From Acidobacteriota bacterium (GTDB lineage: Bacteria; Acidobacteriota; Polarisedimenticolia; Polarisedimenticolales; JBBIHH01), in contig JBBIHH010000004.1 of the NCBI GenBank assembly GCA_037447115.1, forward strand, positions 71,060 to 135,059: 64,000 nucleotides of DNA, written 5' to 3'. The notes below the pieces were generated by a model. That model was not told the origin of the DNA. It worked only from the letters and a program-made list of their open reading frames with translations, and ran no database searches. Positions 5,488-44,514 of this stretch are shown piece by piece. The position numbers and the translations under genes were made by a program. Numbering within the stretch: the stretch's first letter is position 1; each line of letters starts with the position of its first letter.

Positions 5488-5488
5488 C

Positions 5489-7760: not shown

Positions 7761-7761
7761 G

Positions 7762-15060: not shown

Positions 15061-15135
<75 letters not shown>

Positions 15136-29502: not shown

Positions 29503-30123
29503 ATGCGCCGCGTGCTCGCACTGATGGCCGTCGGTTGCGCCGTCCTCGCGGCGCAGGCCGCGACCGAGCTCAGCGTGGAGGAGCTGATCGCGCTTCACCG
29601 CGCGGGCCTGAGCGAAGAGACGATCCTCCAGTACGTGGACAAGTACGACATCTGCGTTCCCCTGGGCCCGGCAGACCTGGTGGCGATGGCCGACGCCGGG
29701 GTTCCCGAGACGCTGATCCAGGCGCTCGTGGGAAAGATGGCGGGCTGCGAGGCGGGCGAATCGAGCGCGGGCAAGCGAGCGGGCCGCGGCCGCACCTATG
29801 GGTTCGCTCGGCCCGGTTACTACTACGGCCCGGTCTGCTGCCCAACTCCGTACTACGTGTACGATCCCTTTTTCTACGACCCGTTCTTCTTCAGCTTCGG
29901 CTTCGCCGTCGTCCACGATCCATTCTTCTTGCATCCCCATCGTCACCACCACGGGTTCTTCCATCACCACCACGGGTTCGGTGTGCACCCGCGCCGGGTC
30001 GGGACGGGGGGCCCGGCGCTGAGGACGCGCCCGCCCGGCGGCAGTCCGGCCGGTGGCGCGAGGCTAGCCCCCGGGGCTTCCGGCTCGCGTACCGCCCGCT
30101 CCGCCCGCCCGCGCGGACGCTGA
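29503..30123 (+). CDS. Secreted hypothetical protein with tandem helical motif and aromatic/His-rich C-terminal half
   Basis: Signal peptide MRRVLALMAVGCAVLAAQA. Two copies of an L..aG(l/v)(s/p)EE/ET(i/l)(l/i)q motif. Then YYYGPVCCPTPYYVYDPFFYDPFFFSFGFAVVHDPFFLHPHRHHHGFFHHHHGFGVHP. Confidence 0.6.
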   Translation: MRRVLALMAVGCAVLAAQAATELSVEELIALHRAGLSEETILQYVDKYDICVPLGPADLVAMADAGVPETLIQALVGKMAGCEAGESSAGKRAGRGRTYGFARPGYYYGPVCCPTPYYVYDPFFYDPFFFSFGFAVVHDPFFLHPHRHHHGFFHHHHGFGVHPRRVGTGGPALRTRPPGGSPAGGARLAPGASGSRTARSARPRGR

Positions 30124-31593
30124 CGCGTCCGGCTCCGCAACTCCCCCTCCGGACAGAGCCGCTTGGCGCCGGCCCGGCGCCGGCAGCATCTCCACCTCGG
30201 TCGTCAGCTTGAGCGGGGGCTCTTCCGGAGCGGACCCGGCATAGGTGACCTCCACCAGGAAAGCCCGGCAGCCCGCAGCGGGCGGCGGGACGCGCACTCG
30301 AACCTGCCCTCCAGGTTCGGCTTTCAGAAGTCGGCTCTCCCACCGGGGTCCCAGCGTCTCCAGGCGGAAATCGCAACCGGCGGGATTCGTCGCCTGCCAG
30401 AGCTGGATCTGTGCGGGCGGCTCCGGCAGGCGCACTTCGAGCACACCCGGCGCGGGCCGGACCCAGGTGGGCTCCGCGGGGAGCCGGCCGTCGAGCAGGC
30501 GCCGGTAGAAGGCCGCGATGCTCTCGTGCGCGTCGGAACCGTCGAGCGAATGGTCCGCGTTCGGGACGTAGCGCAGGTACTTGGGGCTGGGCAGGTCCGC
30601 GAAGTAGAAGCGGGAGGAATCGGGCAGGAAATAGGCGTCGCCCGTGGCGTTCACGACGTACTTGGGCATCGTGTAGCGCGCTCGGTAGGCATAGGGATCC
30701 ACGATCGCGCGCAGGCGGGCGAAGGCTTGCGTGCCGAACCAGTCGGGGATGCCCAAGGCGACGTACTCCTCGATGGCGGGCGACCAGAAGCCGTAGACCT
30801 CGCGATGGTGGCGGAAGGAGACCTCGAGGTTGAGACAGTCGATGACCACGGGGATGAGGGCCGCGACGCGCCGGTCCGCGGCCGCCGCGGTCCACGCCGT
30901 CCAGCCGCGCTTGGAGCTGCCGGTGACGACGAAGCGCTCCACCGCGATCCCGAGCGTGTCGCGCGCGTAGATCTCGATGGCGTCCATGGCGCGCACGGCG
31001 GCCTTCGTCATGGGCAGGCGCGGCAGCCAGGTGGCGTCGCCGGTGCGCAGGAAGCGGTCCCAAGCGTAGGCGATCAGCTCGTCTTCCCGGCGGGGCCGGC
31101 CCTCGCCGGCGAACTCGAGCGGCTGGTTGGGCACCATGCGCAACTCCGCCACCAGGCTGCCCGTGACTCGCGCGATCCCGGCCAGAAGCGGGTGCGGCGG
31201 CGGGGCCGGCTGCCCGCGGTCGCCCCCGGCGATGCGCAGCAGCGCCGTGGAATGGCGTACCGCGGAGGGCACGTACAGGACGAGCCAGTGAGTCCAGAGC
31301 GTCCGCTGCACCTCGTGCGATTCGCGCCAGCGCTGGGAGTCCATCTCCAGCCAGTGGACCGCGACGTCGCCGAGCGAGCGTGTCTCGAGGGCCGCGAAGC
31401 GGAACTCGGGGTCGGGACGAGCGACGTAATCGTCGAGCGGCGTCCGCTCCTGTGGCGCGTTCGTGGGCAGCGGCCCGCCGGCACACGCGGCGAGCACGAC
31501 GCCCAGCGCGACGCGACATGCCGCTTTTCCTTTCCGGATCCGGCGGGCCGACGACCCTGGGCCCGCGCCGCGTGGCGCGAGAAAACGGGGCAT
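30064..31593 (-). CDS. PhoPQ-activated pathogenicity-related (PqaA) family lipoprotein
   Basis: Start ATG at 31593; the ORF-track start at 32175 is over-extended. Lipobox VVLAAC. WTHWLVLYVP, VTGSSKRGWTAWTAAA, VIDCLNL and YVPNADHSL resemble the PhoPQ_related family. Confidence 0.7.
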   Translation of the reverse strand: MPRFLAPRGAGPGSSARRIRKGKAACRVALGVVLAACAGGPLPTNAPQERTPLDDYVARPDPEFRFAALETRSLGDVAVHWLEMDSQRWRESHEVQRTLWTHWLVLYVPSAVRHSTALLRIAGGDRGQPAPPPHPLLAGIARVTGSLVAELRMVPNQPLEFAGEGRPRREDELIAYAWDRFLRTGDATWLPRLPMTKAAVRAMDAIEIYARDTLGIAVERFVVTGSSKRGWTAWTAAAADRRVAALIPVVIDCLNLEVSFRHHREVYGFWSPAIEEYVALGIPDWFGTQAFARLRAIVDPYAYRARYTMPKYVVNATGDAYFLPDSSRFYFADLPSPKYLRYVPNADHSLDGSDAHESIAAFYRRLLDGRLPAEPTWVRPAPGVLEVRLPEPPAQIQLWQATNPAGCDFRLETLGPRWESRLLKAEPGGQVRVRVPPPAAGCRAFLVEVTYAGSAPEEPPLKLTTEVEMLPAPGRRQAALSGGGVAEPDASASARAGGAGGTRAGSPGG

Positions 31594-31598: not shown

Positions 31599-32981
31599 CT
31601 ATATCGTGGCATGCCTCCGGGCCTGCGCCAGCGCGCGCTCGGGACGGTCCCATCCGGGGGCGATGCGCAAAGCTCGCGCGAGGGGCTCGATCGCCTCCTC
31701 GGTTCGCCCGACTTCCAGGAGCAGCTCGCCGCAGCCGCACCATGCCCAGGGATCGGCCGGGTCGCGCCGCAGCCCCTGGGCGTAGGCCCGCAGGGCTTCC
31801 AGCGGTCGTCCCCGCCTGCGCGCCAAAGCCGCGGCGACGATCCACGGGGCCGCGCCTCCTTCGTCCGCCGCGAGGGCTTTTTGCAGCGCTCGCTCCGCGC
31901 GTTCGAGCTTTCCCAGCGCGAGCAAGAACTCCGCCGCTCGCGCCGGGGCGATCGTGGTCACGAGACCCGGCTCGCTGACCAAGCCCCCGTCCCGTGCGGG
32001 GCGCTCGGCGCACGCCAGCGCCCGCGCCGCCGCGCGCTCCAGGCCTGGCCTCCCGCCTTGCGCTTCGAGGTCCGAGCGCAGCAACTCCAGCGCCGCCCCG
32101 CGGTCGTCCGAGGTTCCGAGAAGCCGGCGCGCCAGCTCCAGCCGCCCTTCGCCCAGACGCGCCGCCGCGCACCAACGCACCGCCTCGACCGCCAGCGGCG
32201 GGGACAGCCGGAGGAGGCCCTCCTCGAGCGCCTGAAGCTCTCCAGCGGCGTCGCGCAGGCGCAGGCCCGGCACCGCCCGATTCCCCACGAGCGGCACGAG
32301 CTCGCGAACGACGAAGAAGCGGAGCGCTGGATCGGCCGGTCGGGCGCGCAAAGCATCGCGCAAGAGCTTCAGGTTGCGCTCCCGCTTCGCTGCCAACCGC
32401 TCCGTGCGCGGGTCGTAGCCGTCATGGCCGACGACGAGCCCGGAAGCGCGCGGCGCGATCGACGCCGCGCCGAGCCGAGCGGCGATAGCCGGGACGATCT
32501 GCTCGTGGATCGCGCCGCGATAGCGGTACTCTGGGCGGCATCGAAACAGGCGCACGAGCGGGTAGCGGCGGCACGGCCGTCCGCCCGCCCGGTCCACGAT
32601 CTCCACCGTCAACGCCTCTTCGCCACAGCGGGCGAGCCAACGCCGAAAAGCCTCCGGCGGCGGCGCCTCTTCGAGCCATTCGTCCGCGTCCACAACGAGC
32701 GCGTACGCCCCCCGAGCGGCCCGAAGCGCCGCATTGCGAGCTTCGGCGAAGTCGTCCCGCCAGGGATGGCTGAAGACACGCGCCCCGAGCCGCCGCGCGA
32801 CGGCGGCCGTGGCGTCGCGCGAACCGGTGTCCGCCACGACGATCTCGTCCACGTAAGCCCGCACGGACTCGATGCAGCGCGGGAGGTTCGTTTCTTCGTC
32901 GCGGACGATCATGCACAGGCTGAGCAAGGGCTGCGGCACAGGACGAGCCGGCAGCAACGGGGATGCCAAGCGACCCTCCAC
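31599..32981 (-). CDS. Family-2 glycosyltransferase with C-terminal TPR-like region
   Basis: LSLCMIVRDEETNLPRCIESV...IVVADTGSRDAT...DDFAEARNAAL...LVVDADE is a GT2 domain. The C-terminal half is Ala/Leu/Arg-rich helical repeats. The exact start is uncertain (GTG at 32981 or internal). Confidence 0.75.
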   Translation of the reverse strand: MEGRLASPLLPARPVPQPLLSLCMIVRDEETNLPRCIESVRAYVDEIVVADTGSRDATAAVARRLGARVFSHPWRDDFAEARNAALRAARGAYALVVDADEWLEEAPPPEAFRRWLARCGEEALTVEIVDRAGGRPCRRYPLVRLFRCRPEYRYRGAIHEQIVPAIAARLGAASIAPRASGLVVGHDGYDPRTERLAAKRERNLKLLRDALRARPADPALRFFVVRELVPLVGNRAVPGLRLRDAAGELQALEEGLLRLSPPLAVEAVRWCAAARLGEGRLELARRLLGTSDDRGAALELLRSDLEAQGGRPGLERAAARALACAERPARDGGLVSEPGLVTTIAPARAAEFLLALGKLERAERALQKALAADEGGAAPWIVAAALARRRGRPLEALRAYAQGLRRDPADPWAWCGCGELLLEVGRTEEAIEPLARALRIAPGWDRPERALAQARRHATI

Positions 32982-33100
32982 GGCGACCGCGGGTTCGGGT
33001 CGAGATCTCGACGGCGCCGGCCGCTTCGTGTCAGCGGCCCGTCGCGCGGCCCGCCGTGCGCGCGGGCGACGCTGGCAATGACCTTGCAGAACGTGCGCCC

Positions 33101-34294
33101 GTGCACTCGCTGGAACAACGACCGGGTAGCCCGCCGTCGTGCCGCGTCCTGGGCGTCATCGGCGAGCCGCCCAACGGGGTGAGCTACGCCCGCTTTTACC
33201 TACCCTTCGGCCACCTCGCCCGCTACGGCTACGCGCTGCGCACCCTGGGACGAGAGATCCGGTTGCGGCGCACCCCGCGCGGCTGGGAGCCGGTGCCGGA
33301 GCTGCTGGAGGGAGTCCGCGCCGTCCTTTTCCCGCAGCTCGTGGCCGAGCCCGTGCTGCGGGACGGTGTGCCGGTACGGCTCGTCGAGCCCCTATGCGAG
33401 ATGGCGCGAACGCGCGGCATCCCTGTGATCTACTCGGCGGACGACCACCTGCGCGCCATCGAGCCCACGAATCCCAACTACCTCCAGGTCCAGGCGGGGC
33501 TGCCGCAGCTCGAGGTGCTGCGGCGCGAGGCGCAGGCAGTCTTCGTCACGACGCCATCGCTGGCGCAGGCGCTGCACGATTGGGGGGCACCGCTTTTCGT
33601 GCTTCCCAACGCGGTGGATCCGGCCCGCGCGCGCCCGAGACCGCGCCGGGCCTTCAAGCCTCGGATCGGTTGGGCGGGATCGAGCGCGCATTTGGACAAC
33701 CTGCTTTTGGTGCTCCCGGCCCTGGAACGCCTCCGGCGGCGGCGAGATTTCGAGCTGGCCATCTTCGGCCTCTGCCCGCACGAGCTCGAGGTCCAGGAAG
33801 CCATGCTGCGATCGCAGCGTCTGCGATGGAGCGGGCCCGAGCGGACCGCCGGCGAGCTTTTCCTGGAGGTCGCCTCCCGCCTGCGAGGGCTCGGGGCGCG
33901 CCACGTTCCCTTCGGACCCCCGGACGCCTACTTCGCGAACCTCGCGGCGCTCGATCTGGATCTCGGGATCTGTCCCCTGCGGGATAGCCCGTTTTCGCGC
34001 TGCAAGTCGGCGCTCAAGTTCTACGAGTACGCCGCCGTGGGAACGATGACCGTCGCCAGCGATGTCGAGCCCTATCGCGGCGAGGTCTCGGTGACGGTGC
34101 CCGAGGACACCGATGCGTGGTGCGACACGCTGGAACGTTACCTGCTGGATCCCTGCGGTCGCGAGCGGGAGCTCGAGGTCCAGCGGGAGTTCGTGTGGCG
34201 AGAGCGCACGATCGAGCGCGTGCTGCCACTGTGGCGAGAGGCTCTTGCCGCAGTCGCCGCCGTGCCGCGCTCGTGCGCGCGGAGTCGGCCATGA
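33101..34294 (+). CDS. Putative glycosyltransferase (GT-B-like; weak assignment)
   Basis: ...RIGWAGSSAHLDNLLLVLPAL...FELAIFG...KSALKFYEYAAVGTMTVASD... resembles GT-B C-terminal nucleotide-sugar domains. The start is uncertain: GTG at 33101 was chosen, and the ORF-track ATG at 32963 overlaps the divergent gene. Confidence 0.4.
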   Translation: MHSLEQRPGSPPSCRVLGVIGEPPNGVSYARFYLPFGHLARYGYALRTLGREIRLRRTPRGWEPVPELLEGVRAVLFPQLVAEPVLRDGVPVRLVEPLCEMARTRGIPVIYSADDHLRAIEPTNPNYLQVQAGLPQLEVLRREAQAVFVTTPSLAQALHDWGAPLFVLPNAVDPARARPRPRRAFKPRIGWAGSSAHLDNLLLVLPALERLRRRRDFELAIFGLCPHELEVQEAMLRSQRLRWSGPERTAGELFLEVASRLRGLGARHVPFGPPDAYFANLAALDLDLGICPLRDSPFSRCKSALKFYEYAAVGTMTVASDVEPYRGEVSVTVPEDTDAWCDTLERYLLDPCGRERELEVQREFVWRERTIERVLPLWREALAAVAAVPRSCARSRP

Positions 34295-37086
34295 ACTTCC
34301 CGAGTCGTGTGAGTCTCGTCACCCCGGTTTACGGCGCGTGGGATTGCCTGCAACGTTGCTGGGAAAGCCTCGCGGCGGATCTCCGGCCTGGCATCGAGTG
34401 GATCCTCGTGAACAACGGTTCCCCGCAGCCGCCGCCGGAGCCTTTGCGGTGCGCGCTGGTCGGCTCGTCCTGGGCGCGTTGGATCGAAAGCCCCGTCAAC
34501 TTGGGCTTCCCGCGGGCGTGCAACCTGGGCGCGCGCGCTGCCACGGGGCACATCGTCGTTTTCCTCGCCAGCGACGTCGTCGTCGCGCCGGGGGGTCTGT
34601 CGCGGCTGCTCGCCCACTTCGGCGCGAAGCGGGTCGGCGCCGTGGGCCCGCGGTCGAACCGCATCGTCGGTACCCAGGGTCTCGAGCGCGTCCCCTACGA
34701 CGAGGAAACCCTGGAGGGCTTCCAGGCTTACGCGGCAGAGCGGGCCGCCTGTCACGAGGGGCGGGCGACTCCCGTGGGAAGGCTCAGCGGTTTTTGCCTC
34801 GCCGTGAAGCGAGAGGTGCTGGAACGCATCGGCGGCTTCGATCCCGCCTTCGGCGTGGGTAACTTCGAGGACGACGACTTCTGCCTGCGCGCGCGTTTGG
34901 CGGGTTTCGAGTTGCTGCAGGCGGAAGACGTGGTGGTTCACCACTTCGGCGGCCGCAGCTTCGCCGCCGCCGGTGTGGACCGGCAAGCGGCGATTCGCGA
35001 GGCGTGGGCCGTCTTCAAGCGCAAATGGCGTCTGCCCCCCGAGCGACCCCTGGAGGGCGGCTACGACGACGCGGAGCTCCTACAGGGAGACTTCGATCCG
35101 GCGCGCCACTTCGTCGCCCTCGACTTGCCCTCGATCTGGCAGCCGTTGCGCGCGGCAGCCGAGGAGGCGCTCGGCCGGGGAGAGCGCGCGCGGGCCTGGG
35201 CGCTGTTTTCCGCGCTGGCGGATCTGGACCCCGACGACGACGATGCGGCGATGTTCGCCGCGGCCCTCGCGCTGGAACGGGGGGACGAGGCGGGCGCGGC
35301 GGCGTCGGCGCTCGGCGTGTTGCAGCGGCGTCCCTTCCACCCCGCGGCGGCGAACCTGCTAGGGGTGGCCTGCTTGGACTCCGGTCGCGCCGGCCTCGCA
35401 CGCCGGGTGTTCGCGCGGGTCCTGGAGCGTGCGCCGAAGTTCGCCACGGCCAAGAAAAACCTGGAGCTCGCCCGCCGCGCGCACGACGGGGCCGCGGCGG
35501 ATGTCGCCGAATTTCCCGAAAGCGGCGTCCGGGCCTGGTGCCGCGAACATCCCCCCGTGCTCGGTGTGTGCGTCGTGGTGCGGTGCGACGTCCGCGAAGC
35601 CTGTGCGCTTTTCGAGGCTGCGGGCTCGGCCCATGCGAAACGGATCGCCGTCGACGCGACCCGCAACGGCGATCTCGCCCGCCGGCTCCCCGAAGCCCAG
35701 GTCGTGCGGGTCAGCCCCGCCGCTTCCGACGACGAGGCGTGGGATGCGGGCCGGCGAGGAGCGCGGACCGACTGGTTGCTGATGCTCGCCGAAGGCGAGC
35801 GTCTCTCCACGGAGGGTCCCCTTCCCTGGAACCGGTGGCTCGCGCGGCGAGGCGTCCTCGCCTATGCGCTGGAGATCGAGACACCCGGAGCCGGCGTGCA
35901 TCGGGAAGTGCGGCTCTTCCGCAATGCCCCTGACGTGCGCCACGATCCGCGCTGCGAGGAAAGCCTGGAGCTGCTGGCCCGCCGCTGGTCGCTGCGGATC
36001 GCGTCGCTTCCCCTGCGCGTGCGGCGCGCGGGGGGAGAGGTGCCGCGCCTTCCGGCCGGCCGGCCGCTTTCTGCCTTCGAGACGGCGCGCGCCGCATGCG
36101 AGCGGGGGGATTGGGAGGCCTGTCTCGAGGCACTGGCCCGCGTGGCCCCGCCCGCCAGCCGCGCCCGGGCGGAAGCGATCGCAACGATCCGGGCCCGCTG
36201 CCTGGTCCGCCTGGAGCGTCACGGAGACACGCGTCAGGCTCTCGCCACGCACCACGAGGCGTGGGGTCCCACGGCGAACACGAGATTCTTCGAGGCCCTA
36301 GCACTCCGGGCCCTCGGTGTGGTCGACGGGGCCCTCGCGGCAGCGGAGGATGCGGCCCGCCGGCTGGCCGAACCGAGTTTCGAGCCTCCGCTGCCGGAAC
36401 TCGTACGGGGCGATCTCGAGGCGTTGTGCGGGTCGTTGCGACTCGAGACGGGCGATCTCGAAGGAGCGTCGCGCGATTTCGCGGCGGCTCGCGCGAAAAC
36501 GCCGGATCATCTCGATGCCACGATGGGGCAGTTGGCGGTGCGCCTCGCGCACGGCGAGGCGGATGTGGTGGGAGAGCTCGGGCCTGTCCTCGAGCGCCAC
36601 GCCCACGTGCCGCGTGCATGGCTCTACGCCGCGGCGCTGCTCGGTTGCGTCCCCCGCGACGAGGAGGCGATCGAAACTTGGGTCGCCGGGGCCCGCACCC
36701 GTCTCGAGGATGCGGATCGGCGGCGGATGGGTCTCGCGGTGCTGCGCGGCGGGCATGCCCGCGCGGCGCGGACGGCCTGGGCGGGCTGCGAGCCGCTGGA
36801 TGCGCCGAGCCGGGCCGCGTGGCTGGCAGCGGCCCTGGCGGTGGGCGCCGCCGACGAGGTCGACGCGCACGCCCACAGCGCAGGGGTCGAGGAAACGCTC
36901 GATTGGTTCCGCCAGTGGTGGGCGGCGGGGGCGTATGCCGCCCTGGACTGCGCGCTGTGCACGCTGGGGGCTTGCGCGGAGAGGCTGCGCGAGCTCGCGC
37001 AGTCCACCGCCGTCTGGCTCGAGCGTATCGGCCAGCTCGAAGCGGCGGCGCAGTTGCGCGGGGAAGTCCGGCCCACGCCGGCGTGA
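34291..37086 (+). CDS. Large family-2 glycosyltransferase with TPR-rich C-terminal two-thirds
   Basis: ATG at 34291 overlaps the previous stop (ATGA). VSLVTPVYGAWDCLQRC...LVNNGS...NLGFPRACNLG...FLASDVVV...GNFEDDDFCLRARLAGF is a GT2 domain. It is followed by about 600 aa of helical repeats. Confidence 0.8.
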   Translation: MNFPSRVSLVTPVYGAWDCLQRCWESLAADLRPGIEWILVNNGSPQPPPEPLRCALVGSSWARWIESPVNLGFPRACNLGARAATGHIVVFLASDVVVAPGGLSRLLAHFGAKRVGAVGPRSNRIVGTQGLERVPYDEETLEGFQAYAAERAACHEGRATPVGRLSGFCLAVKREVLERIGGFDPAFGVGNFEDDDFCLRARLAGFELLQAEDVVVHHFGGRSFAAAGVDRQAAIREAWAVFKRKWRLPPERPLEGGYDDAELLQGDFDPARHFVALDLPSIWQPLRAAAEEALGRGERARAWALFSALADLDPDDDDAAMFAAALALERGDEAGAAASALGVLQRRPFHPAAANLLGVACLDSGRAGLARRVFARVLERAPKFATAKKNLELARRAHDGAAADVAEFPESGVRAWCREHPPVLGVCVVVRCDVREACALFEAAGSAHAKRIAVDATRNGDLARRLPEAQVVRVSPAASDDEAWDAGRRGARTDWLLMLAEGERLSTEGPLPWNRWLARRGVLAYALEIETPGAGVHREVRLFRNAPDVRHDPRCEESLELLARRWSLRIASLPLRVRRAGGEVPRLPAGRPLSAFETARAACERGDWEACLEALARVAPPASRARAEAIATIRARCLVRLERHGDTRQALATHHEAWGPTANTRFFEALALRALGVVDGALAAAEDAARRLAEPSFEPPLPELVRGDLEALCGSLRLETGDLEGASRDFAAARAKTPDHLDATMGQLAVRLAHGEADVVGELGPVLERHAHVPRAWLYAAALLGCVPRDEEAIETWVAGARTRLEDADRRRMGLAVLRGGHARAARTAWAGCEPLDAPSRAAWLAAALAVGAADEVDAHAHSAGVEETLDWFRQWWAAGAYAALDCALCTLGACAERLRELAQSTAVWLERIGQLEAAAQLRGEVRPTPA

Positions 37087-37107
37087 TTCGGCGACGGCGC
37101 TCACGGC

Positions 37108-38073
37108 TCAGCCGGGTGCCCTGCCGAGCAAGAGCATCAGTTCTTCCTCGAGCTCCCGCAGGCGGCGCTCCCGTTCGAGCAGCGCCGCCTCGCGGTCTTC
37201 GAGCTCCGCGTGGCGGCGGCGCGCGCGAACGGCTTCGAGGTAGTCCCTCCAGCCGGGGTAAGGCGCCACGGCACTGGGATCCACGGAGACATCGCTCGCG
37301 CAGCGCGCCGCTTCGGCGAGAGCGCGCCACAACGCCCGCTGATCCTCGGTGGCAAGAGGTTCGTCTTCGAAGGGCCGCGCCGCGCGCTGGCGGTGGAGCT
37401 TCGGGTCCACCGCCCGTGCCATCTCGTTCCGGGTTCCCTCCGAGCTCGGTTCACCGTGCAGATCGTCGAGCCAGGCCGCGAGCCGCCGCACTTCCCGTGC
37501 GGGATCGCGCAGCAACGCGTCGTGGTCCACGAAATAGCAGGGACGCCCCCGGGTGCTCTCCAGCAGGCGGAGCATGGACAGCTGCCACAGGAGGAGTCCG
37601 GCAGTGAGCGGGATCCGGTCTCGGTGCCAGAGCGATCGTGCGCTCTCCAGTGGGTGGCGGATGGGGACGAGGTACGACGCGTCGTGAAGCCAGCGTTGCC
37701 AGAACGGCATTAGCAAGGCGAATCGGGGATCCTTCCACACCCACCGCTCGGCCCGCCGGTCCATGGAGGCCACCTCGCGCCGCGCCCACGACGCCAGGGT
37801 CGGATCGTCCGCCAGAGCGCGCACGGCCGCGGCATCGCGCGGCGGGCAGTCCCAGCTCCCTTCCGCGGCGTCGAGCAGCGCGTCGTTGAGTCGCATCAGG
37901 GGCCAGCGCTCCCAGTAACCTCGCGGATTGATCTCGTCCGCGTCCATCAACTCCTGGGGGTCCCCCGCGTCCGCGCCCCAGCGGTGCACGAGCTCGGCGA
38001 CGAGCGAGGTCCCGCTGCGGTGCATCCCGGTGACGATGACGCGCAGCGGCCGCGCCGCTCCAGGGCTGGCCAT
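37108..38073 (-). CDS. Sulfotransferase family protein
   Basis: 321 aa. VIVTGMHRSGTSLVA (5'-PSB loop GxxRSGTS), WVWKDPRFALLMPFW (3'-PB-like), and a C-terminal coiled-coil tail. Confidence 0.75.
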   Translation of the reverse strand: MASPGAARPLRVIVTGMHRSGTSLVAELVHRWGADAGDPQELMDADEINPRGYWERWPLMRLNDALLDAAEGSWDCPPRDAAAVRALADDPTLASWARREVASMDRRAERWVWKDPRFALLMPFWQRWLHDASYLVPIRHPLESARSLWHRDRIPLTAGLLLWQLSMLRLLESTRGRPCYFVDHDALLRDPAREVRRLAAWLDDLHGEPSSEGTRNEMARAVDPKLHRQRAARPFEDEPLATEDQRALWRALAEAARCASDVSVDPSAVAPYPGWRDYLEAVRARRRHAELEDREAALLERERRLRELEEELMLLLGRAPG

Positions 38074-38074
38074 C

Positions 38075-39793
38075 TCAGGCGGGCTCGAGCACGCGGGGGC
38101 CGACGGCCGCGGAGCCGGGCCTCAGCTCCGGGAGTGCGAGGACGAGCCAGCTTTCGCGCTCGGCAAGGCGCACGAAATCTTCGGGCCAGCGCCCCCCACC
38201 GCAGGCGGCGAGCCTCTCCAGCGCTTCAGGCCGCAGCCAGCAAACCTCTCCCTCCGGTGCGGCGAGCGTACGCGCCACTCCCGAGGCTCCCTCGCGCACC
38301 TCCGCGCAGAGCGCTGCCACCCGCGGGAGCCGCTCGAACACGCGCTCCGCCACCCGCCACTGACGCGGACTGGGCAGCGGGGCGCCCGCGGCCAGGAGGA
38401 TCGTCAGTTGCCGGGGTCCTTGCGCGAGGGCTTGCGCGATGCCCCGCTCGGTGTTCTCCACGATCACATCCGCGACGGCGCGCAGGCGTTCGACCTGCGG
38501 GGCGCGCAGGCTTCCCGGCGTGCAGACCAAGCTGACCTGCCACCCGCAGACGCGCCCCGGCGGATCCTGGAAGGCTTCCAGACAATCGAGGGCTTCCCGG
38601 TAGCTTGCCACGCCGTGCAGCACGAGCCGCGCCTGAGCGGGGGCGACCCGTGCGAGGTCCGCCGGCAGCCCGAGCTGAGCGAGACGCGCCTGGACGGTCC
38701 GCCACGCGGGGTGGGAGAGTTGGTACTTGTGCAGCCGGGCACCGATGCGCCGCGCCGCGGCGTCGCGGCCGTGGCGCTCGCCCAGGGTCTCGAGATAACC
38801 CCGAGCCCAGTGAAAGCTGAGGATCCTGTGGTACGCGCCGAACAGGCGCTCGGTCTGGGCCAGGAGCGTGCGTGCCTCCGCGTCGAGATCGGCAAGCGCG
38901 GCTCCATCGGACAAGGCTCGCTCCCAGAGCTCGCGGTACTCGGGACGGGCCCTCAGGAGCGGCTCGAGTTCGGCGATGCGCGCCTCGTCCCGGTCGCGGT
39001 CGGTGTCGGCGTAGGCCAGGCAGCCGCGCAGCGCCAAATCCAGCGTGCCCAGGCCGCCCTCGAACTCCGGGTGTTTCTCCTCCAGCAGCACCATCGCGCG
39101 CCCCGCGAGCTCCTGGCGCCGCAGGTAGCCCTCGAGGCTCACCGGATGGTGGTGGTAACCGATGGCCCACGGGTCGTAGACGATGCGCGCGCCGGCTCGG
39201 ACGAGCCGGATGCCGAGATCGGTATCCTGGCAGCCGAAGGGAAAGCGCTCGTCGAAGGCGCCGACCTGGAGCAACAGATCGCGGCGCACGGAGAAGTTCG
39301 GGGCATAGAGAAAGTTCGGCGGCACGCGTTGCGGATCCCGAATTTGGTGGTAGGCGAACTGGTATCCCCCGTGCACGAGATAGAACATGAAGGGCGTCAC
39401 GTCCAGCCGCTCGTCGTAAGGGAGGGCGCCGAGCACGACCAGGCGTTCCTCCGGATGCGATTCGTGCCAGCCCACGTGGCGCGCGATCATCTGGGGATCG
39501 AAGACGATGTCGGCGCCGGAACCGAGGACGTAAGTTCCCCGCGCTCTGTGGATGGCGGCGTTCGTCGCCGCCGACTGATTGGCCCACTGCCCGCGCGTCA
39601 CCTCCAGGCGGAAGGGGAAGCGACGTCCCGCGAGCGCCTCGAACGTGCCGTCCGTGGAGCCGTCGTCCGCCACGATGGTCTCCAGGCGCTCCAGATCGAA
39701 CGCGCTGCGGGCGATGGAGGCGAGGGTTTGTTCCAGTCGCGCGCGGTTGTCGCGCGAGGGAATCACGATGGAGACGAGGGGCGCCGGGCTCAT
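38075..39793 (-). CDS. Family-2 glycosyltransferase with long C-terminal extension
   Basis: ATG at 39793 overlaps the rmlD stop. VSIVIPSRDNRARLEQTL...IVADDGSTDGT...VLGSGADIVF is a GT2 domain. The ORF-track start at 40126 is over-extended. Confidence 0.8.
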   Translation of the reverse strand: MSPAPLVSIVIPSRDNRARLEQTLASIARSAFDLERLETIVADDGSTDGTFEALAGRRFPFRLEVTRGQWANQSAATNAAIHRARGTYVLGSGADIVFDPQMIARHVGWHESHPEERLVVLGALPYDERLDVTPFMFYLVHGGYQFAYHQIRDPQRVPPNFLYAPNFSVRRDLLLQVGAFDERFPFGCQDTDLGIRLVRAGARIVYDPWAIGYHHHPVSLEGYLRRQELAGRAMVLLEEKHPEFEGGLGTLDLALRGCLAYADTDRDRDEARIAELEPLLRARPEYRELWERALSDGAALADLDAEARTLLAQTERLFGAYHRILSFHWARGYLETLGERHGRDAAARRIGARLHKYQLSHPAWRTVQARLAQLGLPADLARVAPAQARLVLHGVASYREALDCLEAFQDPPGRVCGWQVSLVCTPGSLRAPQVERLRAVADVIVENTERGIAQALAQGPRQLTILLAAGAPLPSPRQWRVAERVFERLPRVAALCAEVREGASGVARTLAAPEGEVCWLRPEALERLAACGGGRWPEDFVRLAERESWLVLALPELRPGSAAVGPRVLEPA

Positions 39794-40653
39794 GCGGCCG
39801 CCCTCAGGGCCAGGTAATCGTGCAGGGCCTCGCGCCAGGGCCGCATGCGATCGAGCCCGAGGCGCCGGAGGGCGACGTTGTCGAGCACCGAGTACTTGGG
39901 GCGCCGCACCTCGCCGGCGAACTGGCCGGGCCGGGCGCGCTCGAGCTGGACCGGCACGCCGGTGCGGGCGAAGATCTCCTCCGCGAAGTCGTACCAGGAG
40001 CAGGCCCCCTGCGCCGTGGCGTGGAAGACTCCGAAGGCCCCGCGCTCGCAGAGCACCGCGATCTGCTCGGCCAGGTCGGCGGTGTAGGTGGGACTCAAAA
40101 GCTCGTCGTCCACGACCTGCACGCATCCCCGCTCGCGCGCGAGCTGGAGCATGCGCTCGACGAAGTTAGCCCCCTTGCCGCGACAGGGATACCGGCCGTA
40201 CAGCCCGGAGGTGCGCACGATGGCGTGGCGCGGGTTGGCCTGGCGCACGAGGTGCTCGCCGCAGAGCTTGGTCAGCCCGTAAACATTGAGCGGCCCCGGC
40301 GCGTCCGTTTCCTCGTAGGGCCGCCCTTTGCGGCCGTCGAAAACGTAGTCCGTGCTCACATAGAGGACGCTCGCGCCGAGCTCCGCGCTGACCTGCGCCA
40401 CGTGCTTCGCCCCCAGGGCGTTCACCGCGAAGGCATCGAGGGGCCGCCGCTCGCAGGCCGGCACGTCGTGCAGCGCCGCCGTGAGCAGCACCCAGTCCGG
40501 AGCCGCCCGGTGGAGCGCGGCGGCCACCGACTCCAGGCGGCGCACCTCGATCGCCTCGTGCCCCAAGGCGATCACTTCCTGCCCGTGGCGTGCCAGGGCC
40601 TCGCAGCAGTCTCGGCCGAGCTGGCCCGTGGCACCGATGACCGCGACCCGCAT
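39790..40653 (-). CDS. rmlD: dTDP-4-dehydrorhamnose reductase
   Basis: 287 aa. MRVAVIGATGQLG, VSTDYVFDG, YGLTKLCGE and LLSPTYTADLA are RmlD signatures. Confidence 0.85.
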   Translation of the reverse strand: MRVAVIGATGQLGRDCCEALARHGQEVIALGHEAIEVRRLESVAAALHRAAPDWVLLTAALHDVPACERRPLDAFAVNALGAKHVAQVSAELGASVLYVSTDYVFDGRKGRPYEETDAPGPLNVYGLTKLCGEHLVRQANPRHAIVRTSGLYGRYPCRGKGANFVERMLQLARERGCVQVVDDELLSPTYTADLAEQIAVLCERGAFGVFHATAQGACSWYDFAEEIFARTGVPVQLERARPGQFAGEVRRPKYSVLDNVALRRLGLDRMRPWREALHDYLALRAAA

Positions 40654-40678
40654 GATGCCCCTCCCCAGCGAAAGCCGT

Positions 40679-41659
40679 TCAAGCCACTTGCATCAGCTCC
40701 GGCTTGGGATTCAGCTCGCGGAAAACCCGGATGTTGTAGTAGCGGGGGTTGTCGAAGTCGCGGAAATGCTCCAGGTGGTCCGCCAGGTCGTCCACGATCG
40801 TCTCGACGTCGCAGCGTGGTTTGAAGCTCAACACGTTGCGCGCCCGCTCGATGCTGACCTTGTAGTTGCGGTAGTCCTCGCGGTGCTCGATCTGGAGGCG
40901 GATCGGCCGGCCCAATCGGCGCTCGACGCCCTGTTTTACCAGGTCGGCGATCTCCCCGACGGTGTAGTTGCCCGAGGCGACGTTGAAGATGCCCGAGACG
41001 GAGGCGTGGGCCTCGATGGCGCGGATGTAGGCGGCGGCGGCGTCCTGGATGCCGAGGATGGGGCGCCAGATGGCCGGGTTGTGGACGACGATCTTGCCTT
41101 CGGCCACCGCCGAGCGGAACATCGCGTTCACCACGAGATCGAGCCGCATCCGCGGGCTGTAGCCGCAGACCGTGCCCTGCCGCAGCGTGATCACGGAAAA
41201 GCGCTCCGAGGCCAGCTGCATCACGGCTCGCTCGCCCTGAAGCTTCGAGATTCCGTACGGGTAGTGGCAGACGGCCGGCGCGTCTTCGTCGTAGAGCTCG
41301 TTGAGCGTATAGCCGTAGACGGAGCAGGACCCGGCGTAGATCAGCCGCCGCACGCCGGCGCGCGCGGCGACGTAGCCCAGGTAGGCCGGGGCCGAGGCGT
41401 TGTAGATGAAGTTCAGGGCCGGGGAAAACTCCGCCATCGGGTCGTTCGACAGACCGGCGAGGAACAGGACCTGGTCGTAGCCGGCCAGGTCCTTCTCGTG
41501 GAGGGCGAAGATGTCCTTGTGGAGCACGCCCGCCTCGCGCGGCAGGTGGTTGCCGAACCAGAAGAGGTCGAGCACATCCACGCGGTAGCCGCGCTCGAGC
41601 AAGCGCGGGATGAGGTAGGAGCCGATGTAACCGGCCCCGCCCGCGATCAACAGCTTCAT
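40679..41659 (-). CDS. NAD-dependent epimerase/dehydratase (extended SDR)
   Basis: ATG at 41659. MKLLIAGGAGYIGS (Rossmann motif) and YPYGISK (YxxxK). Overlaps the rmlC stop by 4 nt. The ORF-track start at 42673 is over-extended. Confidence 0.75.
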   Translation of the reverse strand: MKLLIAGGAGYIGSYLIPRLLERGYRVDVLDLFWFGNHLPREAGVLHKDIFALHEKDLAGYDQVLFLAGLSNDPMAEFSPALNFIYNASAPAYLGYVAARAGVRRLIYAGSCSVYGYTLNELYDEDAPAVCHYPYGISKLQGERAVMQLASERFSVITLRQGTVCGYSPRMRLDLVVNAMFRSAVAEGKIVVHNPAIWRPILGIQDAAAAYIRAIEAHASVSGIFNVASGNYTVGEIADLVKQGVERRLGRPIRLQIEHREDYRNYKVSIERARNVLSFKPRCDVETIVDDLADHLEHFRDFDNPRYYNIRVFRELNPKPELMQVA

Positions 41660-42270
41660 GGTCTCGCACCCTCCATGGCAGGCGCCACGCGCGCCTGCGG
41701 CGCCGTCCAGCGGAGGGCTTGCGCCTCGGGGCGCGCCAACCACTCGCGCAAGCTGGGGGCGTCGCGGTCCTTGTCCGAGAGAATGGGCCGCGCCACCGGC
41801 CACTCGATGCCGATCTCGGGATCGTCCCAGCGGATCCCGCCCTCGCCGCGCGGGTTGTAGAGCGCTGTGCACTTGTACTGGATTTCCGCCCAGTCGGAGA
41901 GCGCACAGAAACCCCGCGCGAAACCGGCGGGAGCCCAGATCTGCCGCCGGTCGCGCTCGGAGACCACCGCGCCGTGCCAGCGGCCGAAGGTGGGCGAGCC
42001 GAGCCGCAGATCCACGGCGACCAGAAACGCCTCGCCGTGCGTCACCCGCATCAGCTTTCCCATCGGCGGGTCCCACTGGAAATGAAGCCCCCGCACCACG
42101 TGGCGCCGCGAGCCCGAGTGGTTGTCCTGGACGAAATGGTCGGGAAGCCCCAGCGCCGCGAACCGATCGCTCCGGAAGCTCTCGTAGAAGAAACCGCGTG
42201 CGTCCTCGAAGATCTCGGGGACGAACACGACCACGTCGCCCAACGCCACCTCGTGGATCTGCGTCCGCAT
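41656..42270 (-). CDS. rmlC: dTDP-4-dehydrorhamnose 3,5-epimerase
   Basis: ATG at 42270. FEDARGFFYESF, QDNHSGSRRHVVRGLHFQ, GKLMRVTHGEAFLVAVDLR and GFARGF are RmlC cupin motifs. Confidence 0.9.
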   Translation of the reverse strand: MRTQIHEVALGDVVVFVPEIFEDARGFFYESFRSDRFAALGLPDHFVQDNHSGSRRHVVRGLHFQWDPPMGKLMRVTHGEAFLVAVDLRLGSPTFGRWHGAVVSERDRRQIWAPAGFARGFCALSDWAEIQYKCTALYNPRGEGGIRWDDPEIGIEWPVARPILSDKDRDAPSLREWLARPEAQALRWTAPQARVAPAMEGARP

Positions 42271-42483
42271 CGCATCCCTCCGCCGTGTCGCGGCGGCCTG
42301 CACCGATGCAACCGGTCTGCCAGGCGGAAGCCCGCGGCGTCGCGGCCTGGGTAGCCCGGTCCGGCGGCGAAAGCCTGCCGCCGCGCGGAAATCTGCCGCC
42401 GGCGGGAAGTCGCGCGTGGCCGGACTTGCACATCGCGCGCGCGGCCCCCACGTTGCTTCGGGGAGACCCGAGGAGGAAACGCG

Positions 42484-43062
42484 ATGGAACCCGATCCGGC
42501 CTCGGAACGCGAGTTCGCGCGCATCCCGGTGGAGCTCGCGGCCCGCATCCGCCTGTTGGAAAGCGACGGCGAGGCGCAAGTGCTGGCCCGCGAGCTCCAG
42601 GAGCGCCCGAGCGTTTGGAGCGTGCAGGAGGAAACGGAGTTGCAGCGGCTGGCCACGAGCAGTGCCTCGGCACCCGAAGCGGTGCTGGCCCGGGCGCTGC
42701 TCGAGGTGGCCGCCCAGCTCCAACGGCTTCGCTACCGGGTACTCCGGCCAGGCCCGCCCATGGAGCCGGCGCGCGTGACCGAGATTTCCGGCTCGGGCCT
42801 GCGCCTGAGCACCGAGCGCCTATTGCAACCCGGAACGCGGCTCGAGATTCAGCTCGAGGACGACGAGAACGGCGCGCCCCCGTTGCGGCTGCTCGGCGAG
42901 GTGGTCCACGCTTCGGGCAGGGCGCCGGCGTTCTACGGGGTACGGTTCGTGGCGGCCCATCCGGCCGACGCGCGGCGTCTGCTCCGTTTCATTTATGAAA
43001 TCCAGCGGCGCGCTCTGCGAGGCGCGGGCCGCCGGGGCCCTCAGCAAGCACCTTCCGGCTGA
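42484..43062 (+). CDS. PilZ domain protein
   Basis: 192 aa. REFARIP (RxxxR-type) at the N-terminus. EISGSGLRLS plus a beta-barrel-like remainder (TRLEIQLEDD...LLGEVVHAS...YGVRFV) in the C-terminal half. Confidence 0.6.
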   Translation: MEPDPASEREFARIPVELAARIRLLESDGEAQVLARELQERPSVWSVQEETELQRLATSSASAPEAVLARALLEVAAQLQRLRYRVLRPGPPMEPARVTEISGSGLRLSTERLLQPGTRLEIQLEDDENGAPPLRLLGEVVHASGRAPAFYGVRFVAAHPADARRLLRFIYEIQRRALRGAGRRGPQQAPSG

Positions 43063-43069
43063 GCCCGCC

Positions 43070-43096
43070 TCAAGATTCTCCCGCCCGGCCCGATAG
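43070..43096 (+). promoter_or_regulatory. Candidate sigma-28 (FliA-type) promoter for fliC
   Basis: TCAA (43070-43073), a 15-nt spacer, then CCCGATAG (43089-43096), against the consensus TAAA-N15-GCCGATAA. Lies 116 nt upstream of the fliC ATG. No fliA gene in the window. Confidence 0.45.
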
Positions 43097-43211
43097 ATCT
43101 CCGTGCCCGCGGGAGCCATGGGGGCTCCGCGACGGGTATGGGTCAGGGCCGCCCGCAGGGCGGCGGCCGCGGCAGGGACGCCGCGGTCAACGAAATCAGG
43201 GAGGATCGGGT

Positions 43212-44096
43212 ATGCCAAGCGGTTTCTCCGTGGTCAACAACGTCCAGTCGCTCAACGCGCTCAATCGGCTGGCCCGCACGAACATCGGCCTGTCGAAGAC
43301 GCTGGAGCGGCTGTCTTCCGGCTTGCGGATCAACTCCGCGGCCGATGACGCGTCGGGCCTGGCCATCGCCGACAGCCTGCGGGCCGACGTCGCCGCGCTC
43401 AACCAGGCGGTGCGCAACGCCAACGACGGCATCAGCGTCGTGCAGGTGGCGGACGGCGCCCTGGCGGAGATCTCGAACCTGTTGCAGCGGGCGATGGCGC
43501 TCGCGGAGCAGGCAGCGTCCGACACCTCGGGCGAGGACAGCAGCGACGAGAAGAACGCCCTGAACGACGAGTACCAGTCGATCCTGCGCGAGATCAACCG
43601 CATCAGCCTCACGGTGGACTTCAACGGCCGCGTGCTGTTCGGCACCTCCGGCGCCACCTTCGACGTCCAGGTCGGTGCCTCGGCCACGCAGGCGAACAAC
43701 GTGATCACGCTGACGACCTCGGCCCTCGAGGCGGTCGGCACCGGCACGGGCGGGCTGGGACTGACCGGGTCGGGCAGCGGCATCACCGTGACGACGACCG
43801 CGCTGCAGACCAAGGCTGGGGCGCAGACCGAGCTGGCCAAAATCCGTGCCGCCATCGACGACATCTCCAGCCGGCGGGGCGATCTCGGCGCGGCACTCAA
43901 CCGGCTCGAGGCCACGGTGAGCGTCGTCTCCATCCAGGCCCAGAACCTCCAGGCCGCCGAGAGCCGCATCCGGGACGCGGACGTGGCGGCGGAGGTGGTC
44001 AACCTGGTCAAGTTCCAGGTCCTGAACCAGACGGGACTCTCCGCCCTGGCGCAGGCCAACGCCAGCGCTCAGAGCGTGCTGTCCCTGTTGCGGTAA
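43212..44096 (+). CDS. fliC: Flagellin
   Basis: 294 aa. N-terminal LERLSSGLRINSAADDASGLAIADSLRA...NANDGISVVQVADGAL and C-terminal ...QVLNQTGLSALAQANASAQSVLSLLR. Short Ser/Thr/Gly-rich central region. Confidence 0.95.
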   Translation: MPSGFSVVNNVQSLNALNRLARTNIGLSKTLERLSSGLRINSAADDASGLAIADSLRADVAALNQAVRNANDGISVVQVADGALAEISNLLQRAMALAEQAASDTSGEDSSDEKNALNDEYQSILREINRISLTVDFNGRVLFGTSGATFDVQVGASATQANNVITLTTSALEAVGTGTGGLGLTGSGSGITVTTTALQTKAGAQTELAKIRAAIDDISSRRGDLGAALNRLEATVSVVSIQAQNLQAAESRIRDADVAAEVVNLVKFQVLNQTGLSALAQANASAQSVLSLLR

Positions 44097-44118
44097 GCGC
44101 GTGAAAGGGCGCGGGGTC

Positions 44119-44137
44119 GGGGGCGCACGCCGCCCCC
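44119..44137 (+). terminator. GC hairpin after fliC (possible attenuator/terminator; no U-tract)
   Basis: GGGGGCG-CACGC-CGCCCCC forms a 7-bp stem 23 nt after the fliC stop. No following T-run. Confidence 0.25.
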
Positions 44138-44149
44138 GGCCCCGCCGGA

Positions 44150-44506
44150 GTGCGGACCGTGGCCACCCCGCTGTCCTTGAACCCCGCACCCGCGCCACCC
44201 GCTCCGGACGCTTCGCGCCCCGCGGGGGCGGGCGCGCGATCCCGCGGGGTTCGGCCGGCCGGGCACCCTTCGCCGCCGCTGCCCGAGGCGGTGGAGGCGG
44301 CGCTGCGCTCGATCGGCCACCGCTTGATCGTCGGCGACCGGATGGCCGAGTTCTCCTTCGATCGCGAGCTGGGGCGGGTCGTCATCCGTGTCTACTCGGA
44401 GACCCAACCCCCGGAGGTGATCCGGCAAATTCCGCCCGAAGAGTTCCTGCGCTTCGCCGCGAAGTTCCGGGAGCTGGTCGGCGTGCTGTTCGAGGGCGTG
44501 GCCTGA
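44150..44506 (+). CDS. flaG: FlaG family flagellar protein
   Basis: The C-terminus EFSFDRELGRVVIRVYSETQPPEVIRQIPPEEFLRFA fits the FlaG pattern. The start codon is uncertain (GTG at 44150). Confidence 0.7.
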   Translation: MRTVATPLSLNPAPAPPAPDASRPAGAGARSRGVRPAGHPSPPLPEAVEAALRSIGHRLIVGDRMAEFSFDRELGRVVIRVYSETQPPEVIRQIPPEEFLRFAAKFRELVGVLFEGVA

Positions 44507-44514
44507 GGCATCCC

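Follow-up and report, generated by a model that had tools for sequence, protein, structure and literature searches.

A predicted glycosylation island with a sulfotransferase next to the flagellin gene of an Acidobacteriota bacterium

Glycans on flagellin affect motility, the way filaments assemble, the adsorption of phages and recognition by the immune system, and the groups known on them in bacteria are neutral, acidic (nonulosonic), phosphorylated or sulfonated. Here we describe an island of glycosyltransferase, nucleotide-sugar and sulfotransferase genes that adjoins the flagellin gene fliC and its regulon in an Acidobacteriota bacterium, within 64,000 nucleotides (nt) of contig JBBIHH010000004.1 (assembly GCA_037447115.1, positions 71,060 to 135,059; this whole stretch is called the window). 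In Listeria monocytogenes, GmaR combines a glycosyltransferase with tetratricopeptide repeats (TPRs) and O-GlcNAcylates flagellin by adding N-acetylglucosamine (GlcNAc), the TPRs being proposed to recognise flagellin (PMC9638930). The type B flagellin of Clostridioides difficile (ribotype RT027) carries a GlcNAc-Rha-Rha-Fuc3N chain, with two rhamnoses added to GlcNAc-Ser and a sulfonated cap, and the rml genes adjoin fliC (PMC5207245). The b-type flagellin glycan of Pseudomonas aeruginosa carries phosphate (PMC11833859). In the archaeon Halobacterium salinarum, two sulfotransferases, VNG1056C and VNG1057C, have been shown genetically to sulfate the N-glycan of archaellin (PMC11980604). Flagellin glycosylation islands with rml genes and TPR-bearing family 2 glycosyltransferases (GT2s), as well as sulfated archaellin glycans, are thus already known. 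In the literature we found no report of a sulfotransferase of the type that uses 3′-phosphoadenosine-5′-phosphosulfate (PAPS) in a bacterial flagellin island, or of a PAPS-dependent sulfate ester on a bacterial flagellin glycan, in agreement with a first-pass annotation of the window, which knew of no well-characterised sulfated flagellin glycan in bacteria.

We propose, with a probability of about 0.4, that the island builds a short O-linked, 6-deoxyhexose (rhamnose)-containing, sulfated glycan on FliC in the cytoplasm before export. This value combines three component judgements of unequal strength: the island genes very probably form one pathway that includes the sulfotransferase, the sulfotransferase is likely to be active on carbohydrate, and flagellin is, with less assurance, the favoured target. 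If the proposal holds, FliC would be the first flagellin of a bacterium for which an O-sulfated (sulfate ester) glycan is predicted, made by a GmaR-type initiator together with a recruited 'sulfated-rhamnan' module.

Enzymes encoded by the island

The window has a GC content of ~70%, and coding frames were chosen by third-position GC, after which the open reading frames (ORFs) of the first-pass annotation were checked directly. Searches with Pfam and NCBIfam models placed all ten genes, from the island through fliC, at the coordinates given here, and five of the calls are identical to recorded proteins. A minus-strand operon begins with rmlC, for dTDP-4-dehydrorhamnose 3,5-epimerase (41656-42270, −; TIGR01221, 222 bits against a cut-off of 156; Pfam 3e-63), and continues with a short-chain dehydrogenase/reductase (SDR) of the nucleotide-sugar epimerase/dehydratase/oxidoreductase type (40679-41659, −; Pfam Epimerase 2e-27), rmlD, for dTDP-4-dehydrorhamnose reductase (39790-40653, −; TIGR01214, 291 bits against 224; Pfam RmlD_sub_bind 3e-83), and a GT2 gene termed GT2_C (38075-39793, −; 572 aa; Pfam GT2 3.5e-16). 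It ends with the gene for the PAPS-dependent sulfotransferase (37108-38073, −; Pfam Sulfotransfer_3 1e-10, 42.8 bits against a cut-off of 27). Opposite to it lies a plus-strand pair, a GT-B (GT4-like) glycosyltransferase gene (32963-34294, +; Pfam Glyco_trans_1_4 1e-5, just under the Pfam cut-off) and the gene for GT2-TPR B (34291-37086, +; protein B, 931 aa; Pfam GT2 6.5e-19, weak TPR), and the two gene sets converge at 37086/37108. The remaining glycosyltransferase gene, GT2-TPR A (31599-32981, −; gene A), matches Pfam GT2 at 7e-20 and several TPR families.

Read from the sequence, ATGA overlaps at 41656-41659, 39790-39793 and 34291-34294 and the 1-nt gap at 38074, which separates GT2_C from the sulfotransferase start codon, couple the island genes and support a single pathway. 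The start of rmlC is 214 nt from that of a divergent gene for a PilZ-domain protein (42484-43062, +; Pfam PilZ 1.5e-9), which lies directly 5′ of fliC (43212-44096, +; 294-aa flagellin; Pfam Flagellin_N 5e-36, Flagellin_C 2e-23). The four glycosyltransferase genes, rmlC, rmlD and the SDR gene all lie within 0.9-11.6 kb upstream of fliC, with gene A 10 kb from it. The first-pass annotation had given the same minus-strand chain, plus-strand pair, separate GT2-TPR gene, junctions and distance to the PilZ gene, and all of them were recovered.

Gene A encodes a protein of 460 aa in which a GmaR/SunS-type module (aa ~15-230) is followed by C-terminal TPRs (aa 349-453; TPR_19, TPR_1, TPR_16 and others in Pfam, with TPR matches in the PDB too). 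Its best non-TPR match in the PDB is the catalytic domain of GmaR (22ao, E 2e-22, residues 15-211 against GmaR 6-199, almost the whole of that domain), followed by the peptide glycosyltransferases SunS and ThuS (7msk, 7msp). Across seven members of the GmaR-like family the DTGS, DADE (DxD), HEQ and H..G motifs are invariant, the DADE residues being D98, A99, D100 and E101 in gene A. The GmaR-like architecture suggested by the first-pass annotation therefore holds for gene A, with its DxD motif intact. The protein stops after the TPRs. Because it is without the linker and antirepressor (MogR-binding) domains of GmaR, a protein of 637 aa, a regulatory role of the MogR type is not expected for it. 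By homology, gene A would work like the transferase half of GmaR and is not a GmaR ortholog; we propose it, by analogy with GmaR, as the initiating, flagellin-docking enzyme.

Protein B has a canonical GT2 domain (aa 1-260), TPRs (~270-400), a degenerate GmaR-like module (~420-560) and a helical-repeat C terminus. Its TPRs match those of the eukaryotic O-GlcNAc transferase OGT in the PDB (4e-5), and the degenerate module aligns with gene A over aa 482-551 (BLASTP, E 3e-4). In this second module (window 35550-35970) the family motifs read DATRNG for DTGS, AEGE for DADE and CEE for HEQ; the equivalent module is intact in two relatives of the protein (L088 and L089). The second module of protein B is probably a catalytically dead pseudo-glycosyltransferase scaffold, and for the whole protein we propose a role as elongating enzyme and flagellin-binding scaffold. 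Of the two other glycosyltransferases, the GT-B enzyme was combined with its homologs in a profile, which finds the GT4 enzymes MshA, PimA and BshA among PDB entries (1e-5 to 1e-4). GT2_C joins an N-terminal GT2 domain to an uncharacterised C-terminal half of about 330 aa, and its PDB matches are chondroitin synthase and PglI-type enzymes.

The loop GMHRSGTS is read directly in the sulfotransferase. Across 27 aligned homologs there is no variation in the 5′-phosphosulfate-binding (5′-PSB) residues G16, R19, S20, G21, T22 and S23, in R139 and S147 of the 3′-phosphate-binding (3′-PB) element (RHPLESARS) or in E55, K114 and D115. The first-pass annotation had read this loop as the PAPS site and had named loss of PAPS-binding residues as grounds for abandoning its proposal; the alignment shows no such loss. 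An AlphaFold model of the protein (pLDDT 95.4, pTM 0.91) was compared with the PDB by Foldseek, and the top 29 matches are all PAPS sulfotransferases with probability 1.00, at a TM score of only about 0.45. A sequence search of the PDB gave spurious matches only (E 0.2), and the nearest sulfotransferase homolog is 47% identical. Judged from the model, the fold is secure, and the acceptor class cannot be read from the structural matches.

RmlC and RmlD, identified as such by the first-pass annotation, both score above the NCBIfam equivalog cut-offs. The extra SDR between them was considered as RmlB and rejected (24 bits against a cut-off of 365 with the RmlB model); the PDB entry that matches it best, at E 3.9e-22, is a 'putative sugar-nucleotide epimerase/dehydratase' (6vo6). 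In a metagenome-assembled genome (MAG) of Solirubrobacteraceae (L057), a homolog of the extra SDR with 39.5% identity lies beside rmlC, rmlD and a sulfotransferase gene.

Relatives of the island enzymes in other genomes

The sulfotransferase family was surveyed at 87 loci, 80 of them from genomes and most about 20 kb long, with flagellar and sugar genes sought by tblastn; the window's own loop, VTGMHRSGTS, falls outside the pattern used for the genome scan, and the source genome is not among the retrieved loci. GT2 genes are present at 31 of the 87 loci and adenosine-5′-phosphosulfate (APS) kinase at seven, and rmlC and rmlD together stand beside sulfotransferase homologs in two (L040 and L057). 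Further relatives occur in a natural-product-like cluster or adjoin a GT-TPR protein. In three genomes a sulfotransferase, a B-type GT2, a family 1 glycosyltransferase (GT1) and a GT-B-like domain are fused in one protein of 1436-1629 aa (ST-GT2-GT1-GT1; L093 10001-14890, L042 10001-14311 and L075 3457-7830), homologs of the island GT-B enzyme forming the C-terminal part in L042 and L075. The fusion in L093 is flanked by rmlA, rmlC, rmlD, an RmlB-like SDR gene and APS kinase. These giant proteins look like an uncharacterised family of self-contained sulfated rhamnose glycan synthases. Because the partners are fused elsewhere, Rosetta-stone logic suggests that the island sulfotransferase, the GT2 of protein B and the GT-B enzyme share a pathway despite being encoded on opposite strands. 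Taken together, the neighbourhoods point to sulfated glycans, in many cases linked to rhamnose, as the products of this sulfotransferase family, and the family as a whole is not flagellar.

The GmaR-like module was surveyed in a metagenome scan that yielded 80 loci. Flagellar genes were present in the available flank at 20 of these loci, 17 of which have flagellin; among the 40 loci that reach 8 kb, the number is 12. Contigs are short (median 8 kb) at many of the loci without a flagellar gene, so the true flagellar share is no smaller than the one seen. Of five relatives of protein B, three, the homologs with the best coverage, lie in flagellar loci. One (L088) has fliW, csrA and flagellin followed by modification enzymes; the second (L089) has a glycosyltransferase block that leads into fliD, fliS, fliT, flgB, flgC, fliE, fliF and fliG; and in the third (L091, Geobacter sp. 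M21) such a block adjoins flaF and flbT. A GmaR-like module is present at all five protein B relative loci, often within the same giant protein.

Promoters and the flagellar neighbourhood

The window has six sigma-54-like sites that agree with the consensus at 10 or more of its 11 positions, where shuffled sequence would give 0.93, and three of these six best sites are the promoter regions of the three island operons, correctly oriented. Each of the three matches 10 of 11 positions: TGGCATCCCCGTTGCT (32953-32968, −) points toward gene A, TGGCAATGACCTTGCA (33073-33088, +) toward the GT-B/GT2-TPR B operon, and TGGCAGACCGGTTGCA (42307-42322, −) is intergenic, 37 nt upstream of the rmlC start codon. 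The second sits inside a low-complexity N-terminal extension of the GT-B ORF as called. The proposed starts of gene A (GTG 32981, −) and of the GT-B gene (ATG 32963, +) overlap by 19 nt, and the ORFs as called enclose two of the sites. The real start of gene A is probably further in, at GTG 32939 or TTG 32927, as would follow if the site at 32953-32968 is real, and that of the GT-B gene is probably GTG 33101 or 33179.

The sole sigma-28-like match in the window, TCAAG-N15-CCGATAG (43070-43096, +), lies upstream of fliC, 116 nt before its ATG. Sigma-54-type promoters for the island and a sigma-28-type promoter for fliC would fit an order in which the enzymes are made ahead of their substrate. 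Two more sigma-54-like sites with 10 of 11 positions fall within the flagellar block (59592-59607, + and 61821-61836, +), in the fliK and flgD ORFs, and could be internal promoters for downstream hook genes.

From fliC to the end of the window the flagellar regulon is unbroken: flaG, fliD, fliS, a FleQ-like sigma-54 activator gene and genes for a FleS-like kinase and a FleR-like sigma-54 response regulator are followed by flgC, fliE, fliF, fliG, fliH, fliI, fliJ, fliK, flgD and flgE. The ORF called as fliD (44101-46428) consists of a FlaG-like gene (about 44150-44506, in another frame) and fliD itself (44515-46428), whose start is probably ATG 44515; the resulting order fliC-flaG-fliD-fliS is as in the relative L174. 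The island borders the regulon on its outer side, left of the PilZ gene, and does not lie within the regulon. The first-pass annotation stated that flagellin glycosylation islands usually sit beside fliC. That fits precedents such as the rml genes upstream of fliC in C. difficile (PMC5207245), although here the island occupies the outer regulon edge and has housekeeping genes beyond it.

FliC is 78-89% identical to many Acidobacteriota flagellins, and all of its named close relatives belong to that phylum. Its central segment is rich in Ser, Thr and Gly, with 16 Ser/Thr per 50 residues. Residues 157-205 (window 43680-43830; ITLTTSAL...GLGLTGSGSGITVTTTAL) are well conserved among Acidobacteriota flagellins of 69-89% identity. 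Such conservation of a central 'variable' segment is atypical for an exposed flagellin region and may reflect a conserved modification or structural role.

One relative was inspected at its fliC locus (L174, FliC 84% identical). It has the same PilZ, fliC, flaG, fliD, fliS, sigma-54 activator, kinase and response regulator genes, and its regulon goes on with flgB, flgC, fliE and fliF. The PilZ ortholog, 39% identical, occupies the same place, so that the PilZ gene marks a conserved left boundary of the flagellar locus; upstream of it L174 has signalling genes. A Sulfotransfer_1-type gene of L174 (2230-3168, +), 7 kb 5′ of fliC and directly after a hybrid histidine kinase gene, was considered as a recurrence of the arrangement and rejected, being unrelated to the enzyme in the window (E 0.22).

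Beyond gene A, the left flank holds a PqaA-like (PhoPQ-activated pathogenicity-related) lipoprotein gene (30064-31593, −; PF10142, E 7e-113), genes for an HMA protein, a symporter and an aminotransferase, a 1290-aa ORF and housekeeping genes (nuo, amidase, RNase PH, tmRNA). The ATG of the PqaA-like gene at 31593 has a GAGG Shine-Dalgarno sequence and comes 5 nt past the stop of gene A, with which it may share an operon; its product carries a lipobox, VLAAC. For the PqaA-like protein we found no solved homolog and no useful literature. The 1290-aa ORF (21961-25833, −) shows coding-type third-position GC and zero Pfam matches, and holds a sigma-54-like site (23760-23775, −). The nuo (complex I) cluster (3-9225, +) encodes subunits D, E, F, G, H, J, K, L and M, with no space for nuoI between nuoH and nuoJ and no nuoN recognised past nuoM. 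A tmRNA (10421-10772, +; Rfam 193 bits), with the tag peptide GNAQLALAA, reaches into the ORF 9396-10484 (−) at its 5′ end, and the start called for this ORF is probably too far out; a tRNA-Asn(GTT) lies at 15061-15135 (+). No tRNA adjoins the island (tmRNA and tRNA-Asn both lie over 16 kb away), the only repeats found there are weak, GC-rich and chance-like, and its GC content is the same as that of the flanks, so the sequence does not support a recent horizontal transfer of the island.

Candidate acceptors and comparison with known systems

In the pathway that we propose, RmlC and RmlD, whose identities are firm, would complete dTDP-L-rhamnose from the 4-keto intermediate of RmlA and RmlB encoded elsewhere, and the extra SDR may divert or modify the dTDP-rhamnose sugar. 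Gene A, a GmaR homolog with intact motifs, would dock on flagellin through its TPRs and put the first sugar on a Ser or Thr of the exposed central segment. Elongation of the chain would fall to GT2_C, the GT-B enzyme and the N-terminal GT2 of protein B, a protein whose TPRs and degenerate module would serve as a scaffold. The soluble sulfotransferase, with its conserved PAPS site and its fusion link to glycosyltransferases, would then esterify a hydroxyl of the glycan, and the modified flagellin would leave through the flagellar export apparatus. The three operons would be read from the sigma-54-type promoters ahead of the sigma-28-type fliC promoter, possibly driven by the FleQ-like or FleR-like activators encoded 5-10 kb away. 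Within this scheme we infer the acceptor protein, the order of the sugars, the site of sulfation and the regulator.

The first-pass annotation likewise proposed a flagellin with a sulfated 6-deoxyhexose glycan. The enzymes, the PAPS site and the flagellar enrichment of the GmaR-like family support it in part, sulfate on flagellin itself being a prediction, and several observations weigh against it. Neither rmlA nor rmlB is among the ORFs annotated across the 64-kb window, as the first-pass annotation had said, and there is no tblastn match to RmlA; both enzymes may be encoded elsewhere in the genome. PAPS-synthesis genes are absent from the window. Sigma-54 promoters are not exclusive to flagellar genes. 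Some 70% of the GmaR-like modules have no visible flagellar context. The Ser/Thr-rich centre of FliC, to which the first-pass annotation had pointed, is present but is not specific evidence, because it is conserved across the whole acidobacterial flagellin family, also in the relative without the island. Gene A, which encodes a cytoplasmic glycosyltransferase, seems to share its transcript with the gene of an exported PqaA-like lipoprotein. The combination of a GmaR-like module with a sulfotransferase occurs at 0 of the 80 GmaR-like and 0 of the 87 sulfotransferase loci surveyed; it is seen once and has no support from recurrence. Comparison of fliC neighbourhoods, a check put forward with the first-pass annotation, went against the proposal, since L174 has none of the island genes within 10 kb and its synteny with the window stops at the PilZ gene. 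The absence from that locus implies that the island is lineage-specific, as is typical for flagellin glycosylation islands and equally compatible with a chance neighbour.

The main alternative, doubtful but the most serious, is that the island makes a sulfated rhamnose cell-surface polysaccharide or glycolipid (exopolysaccharide, capsule or lipopolysaccharide-like), with initiation and export genes elsewhere and its position by fliC coincidental; it would then be an ordinary polysaccharide-modification cluster that happens to adjoin fliC. None of the 87 sulfotransferase loci has fliC, fliD, fliS, fliF, fliG or flgE within 10 kb by tblastn. One relative of the enzyme (P0003) lies beside a GT2 gene about 5 kb from Wza/Wzc/CpsB, another (P0015) occurs with Bac_transf and GT2 genes, and the locus in L057 has a Wzc-like gene. 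The giant fusions, with rmlACD and APS kinase, resemble polymer synthases, and GT2_C is likened to the exopolysaccharide enzyme EpsD (NCBIfam 3.6e-41, under the cut-off). The missing island in L174 and the non-flagellar genes to its left in the window point the same way. Export-linked clusters away from flagellar genes had been named beforehand as evidence against flagellin, and relatives with Wza/Wzc or Bac_transf are of that kind, but they are paralogs about 40% identical and not orthologous clusters. In the window itself, the ORFs annotated over the 64 kb include no Wzx, Wzy, ABC transporter, Wza, Wzc, OPX/PCP or Bac_transf/initiating transferase. The island proteins all look soluble and are free of membrane-like segments (top 19-residue hydropathy 1.65 against 2.45 in a FliF control). 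What the window encodes would thus suit a cytoplasmic, carrier-independent pathway, and an export gene could lie elsewhere in the genome. Protein-docking TPRs in two proteins, one of them a GmaR homolog (E 2e-22), also argue against a polysaccharide, as does the strong enrichment of the GmaR-like family and of protein B relatives in flagellar loci: for 20 of 80 GmaR-like against 0 of 87 sulfotransferase loci, Fisher's test gives p of about 1e-7, the sulfotransferase loci covering more total DNA.

A second alternative, which we consider improbable, divides the island into two adjacent systems, with gene A, the GT-B enzyme and protein B serving flagellin and rmlC-SDR-rmlD-GT2_C-sulfotransferase making a non-flagellar sulfated glycan. 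It would account for the opposite strands that converge at 37086/37108, for a flagellar association confined to the families of A and B and not extending to the sulfotransferase family, and for the lack of a sulfotransferase at any of the 80 GmaR-like loci. Yet the fusions in three other genomes link the sulfotransferase to the plus-strand pair; glycosyltransferases encoded on the plus strand must be supplied with a sugar donor, for which the sole pathway in the island is on the minus strand; and the three promoters are all of the sigma-54 type.

It is likewise quite improbable that the glycosylated and sulfated target is some other protein, such as a flagellar or surface protein, a pilin or, as with SunS, a secreted peptide. 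Among solved proteins, gene A is closest, after GmaR, to the peptide S-glycosyltransferases SunS and ThuS; at 60 of the 80 GmaR-like loci the available flank is without a flagellar gene; and two of the protein B relatives are non-flagellar. Against this, no candidate substrate peptide or other target gene is evident in the island, fliC, 940 nt off, is the nearest plausible substrate gene, and the short contigs (median 8 kb) make the flagellar fraction a minimum. The weakest alternative, sulfation of a protein tyrosine as by RaxST or the tyrosylprotein sulfotransferases, draws on the best structural matches of the enzyme (8w5z, 3ap3, 5wrj) and is very improbable. Those matches are remote (TM about 0.45, 15% identity) and hardly better than the ones to Stf9, CurM and the cytosolic sulfotransferases (SULTs). 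Direct sulfation of FliC was rejected, since family members are fused to GT2/GT1 domains and lie beside rml genes, and since the single tyrosine of FliC, Y121, is invariant and part of the conserved helical domain at the N terminus.

If the proposed sulfated flagellin glycan is real, sulfation joins the modifications of bacterial flagella, and a generic sulfated-glycan module would be shown to be attachable to a protein-targeting GmaR/TPR enzyme. The widespread, uncharacterised branch of Sulfotransfer_3 proteins that includes the giant ST-GT2-GT1 fusions would gain a first function, and a way would open into the surface biology of the poorly studied Acidobacteriota.

Set beside Listeria GmaR, gene A has the same order of catalytic module and TPRs, and the two flagellins are of similar length, about 290 aa. 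GmaR adds a single GlcNAc, whereas the three further glycosyltransferases, rml genes and sulfotransferase of the island imply an extended, modified chain. The C. difficile type B locus shares rml genes and several glycosyltransferases by fliC and a sulfur-oxyanion cap. There, however, the cap is a taurine sulfonate on a peptidyl-amido group with dedicated biosynthetic genes, and no sulfotransferase is mentioned (PMC5207245). The PAPS-dependent O-sulfotransferase of the island would make a sulfate ester instead, and both the phylum and the enzymes differ.

Pseudomonas (P. aeruginosa a- and b-type, P. syringae) shares the fliC-flaG-fliD-fliS-fleQ-fleSR-fliEFG layout, deoxyhexose- or rhamnose-based glycans and islands that vary between strains. 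Its islands lie between flgL and fliC, inside the regulon, whereas the island in the window is outside the regulon, left of the PilZ gene; the anionic group in Pseudomonas is phosphate, and to our knowledge its flagellin islands have no GmaR-type enzyme. Alteromonas macleodii was considered as a precedent and set aside, its sulfotransferases being in O-chain islands and not in the flagellar island. The giant fusions have the same sulfotransferase family, B-type GT2 and GT-B-like domain by dTDP-rhamnose genes, but they are single polypeptides without TPR or GmaR-like parts, in non-flagellar neighbourhoods.

Halobacterium offers the nearest parallel in outcome, with sulfated glycans on the protein of a motility filament and dedicated sulfotransferases. 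That system is archaeal and N-linked, its glycan being built and sulfated on dolichol phosphate and transferred by AglB to an unrelated filament, whereas the system proposed here would be bacterial, O-linked, cytoplasmic and carrier-free. Such a system, as tentative as the proposal itself, could be regarded as a bacterial counterpart of the sulfated archaellin glycans and as a new route to a polyanionic filament surface.

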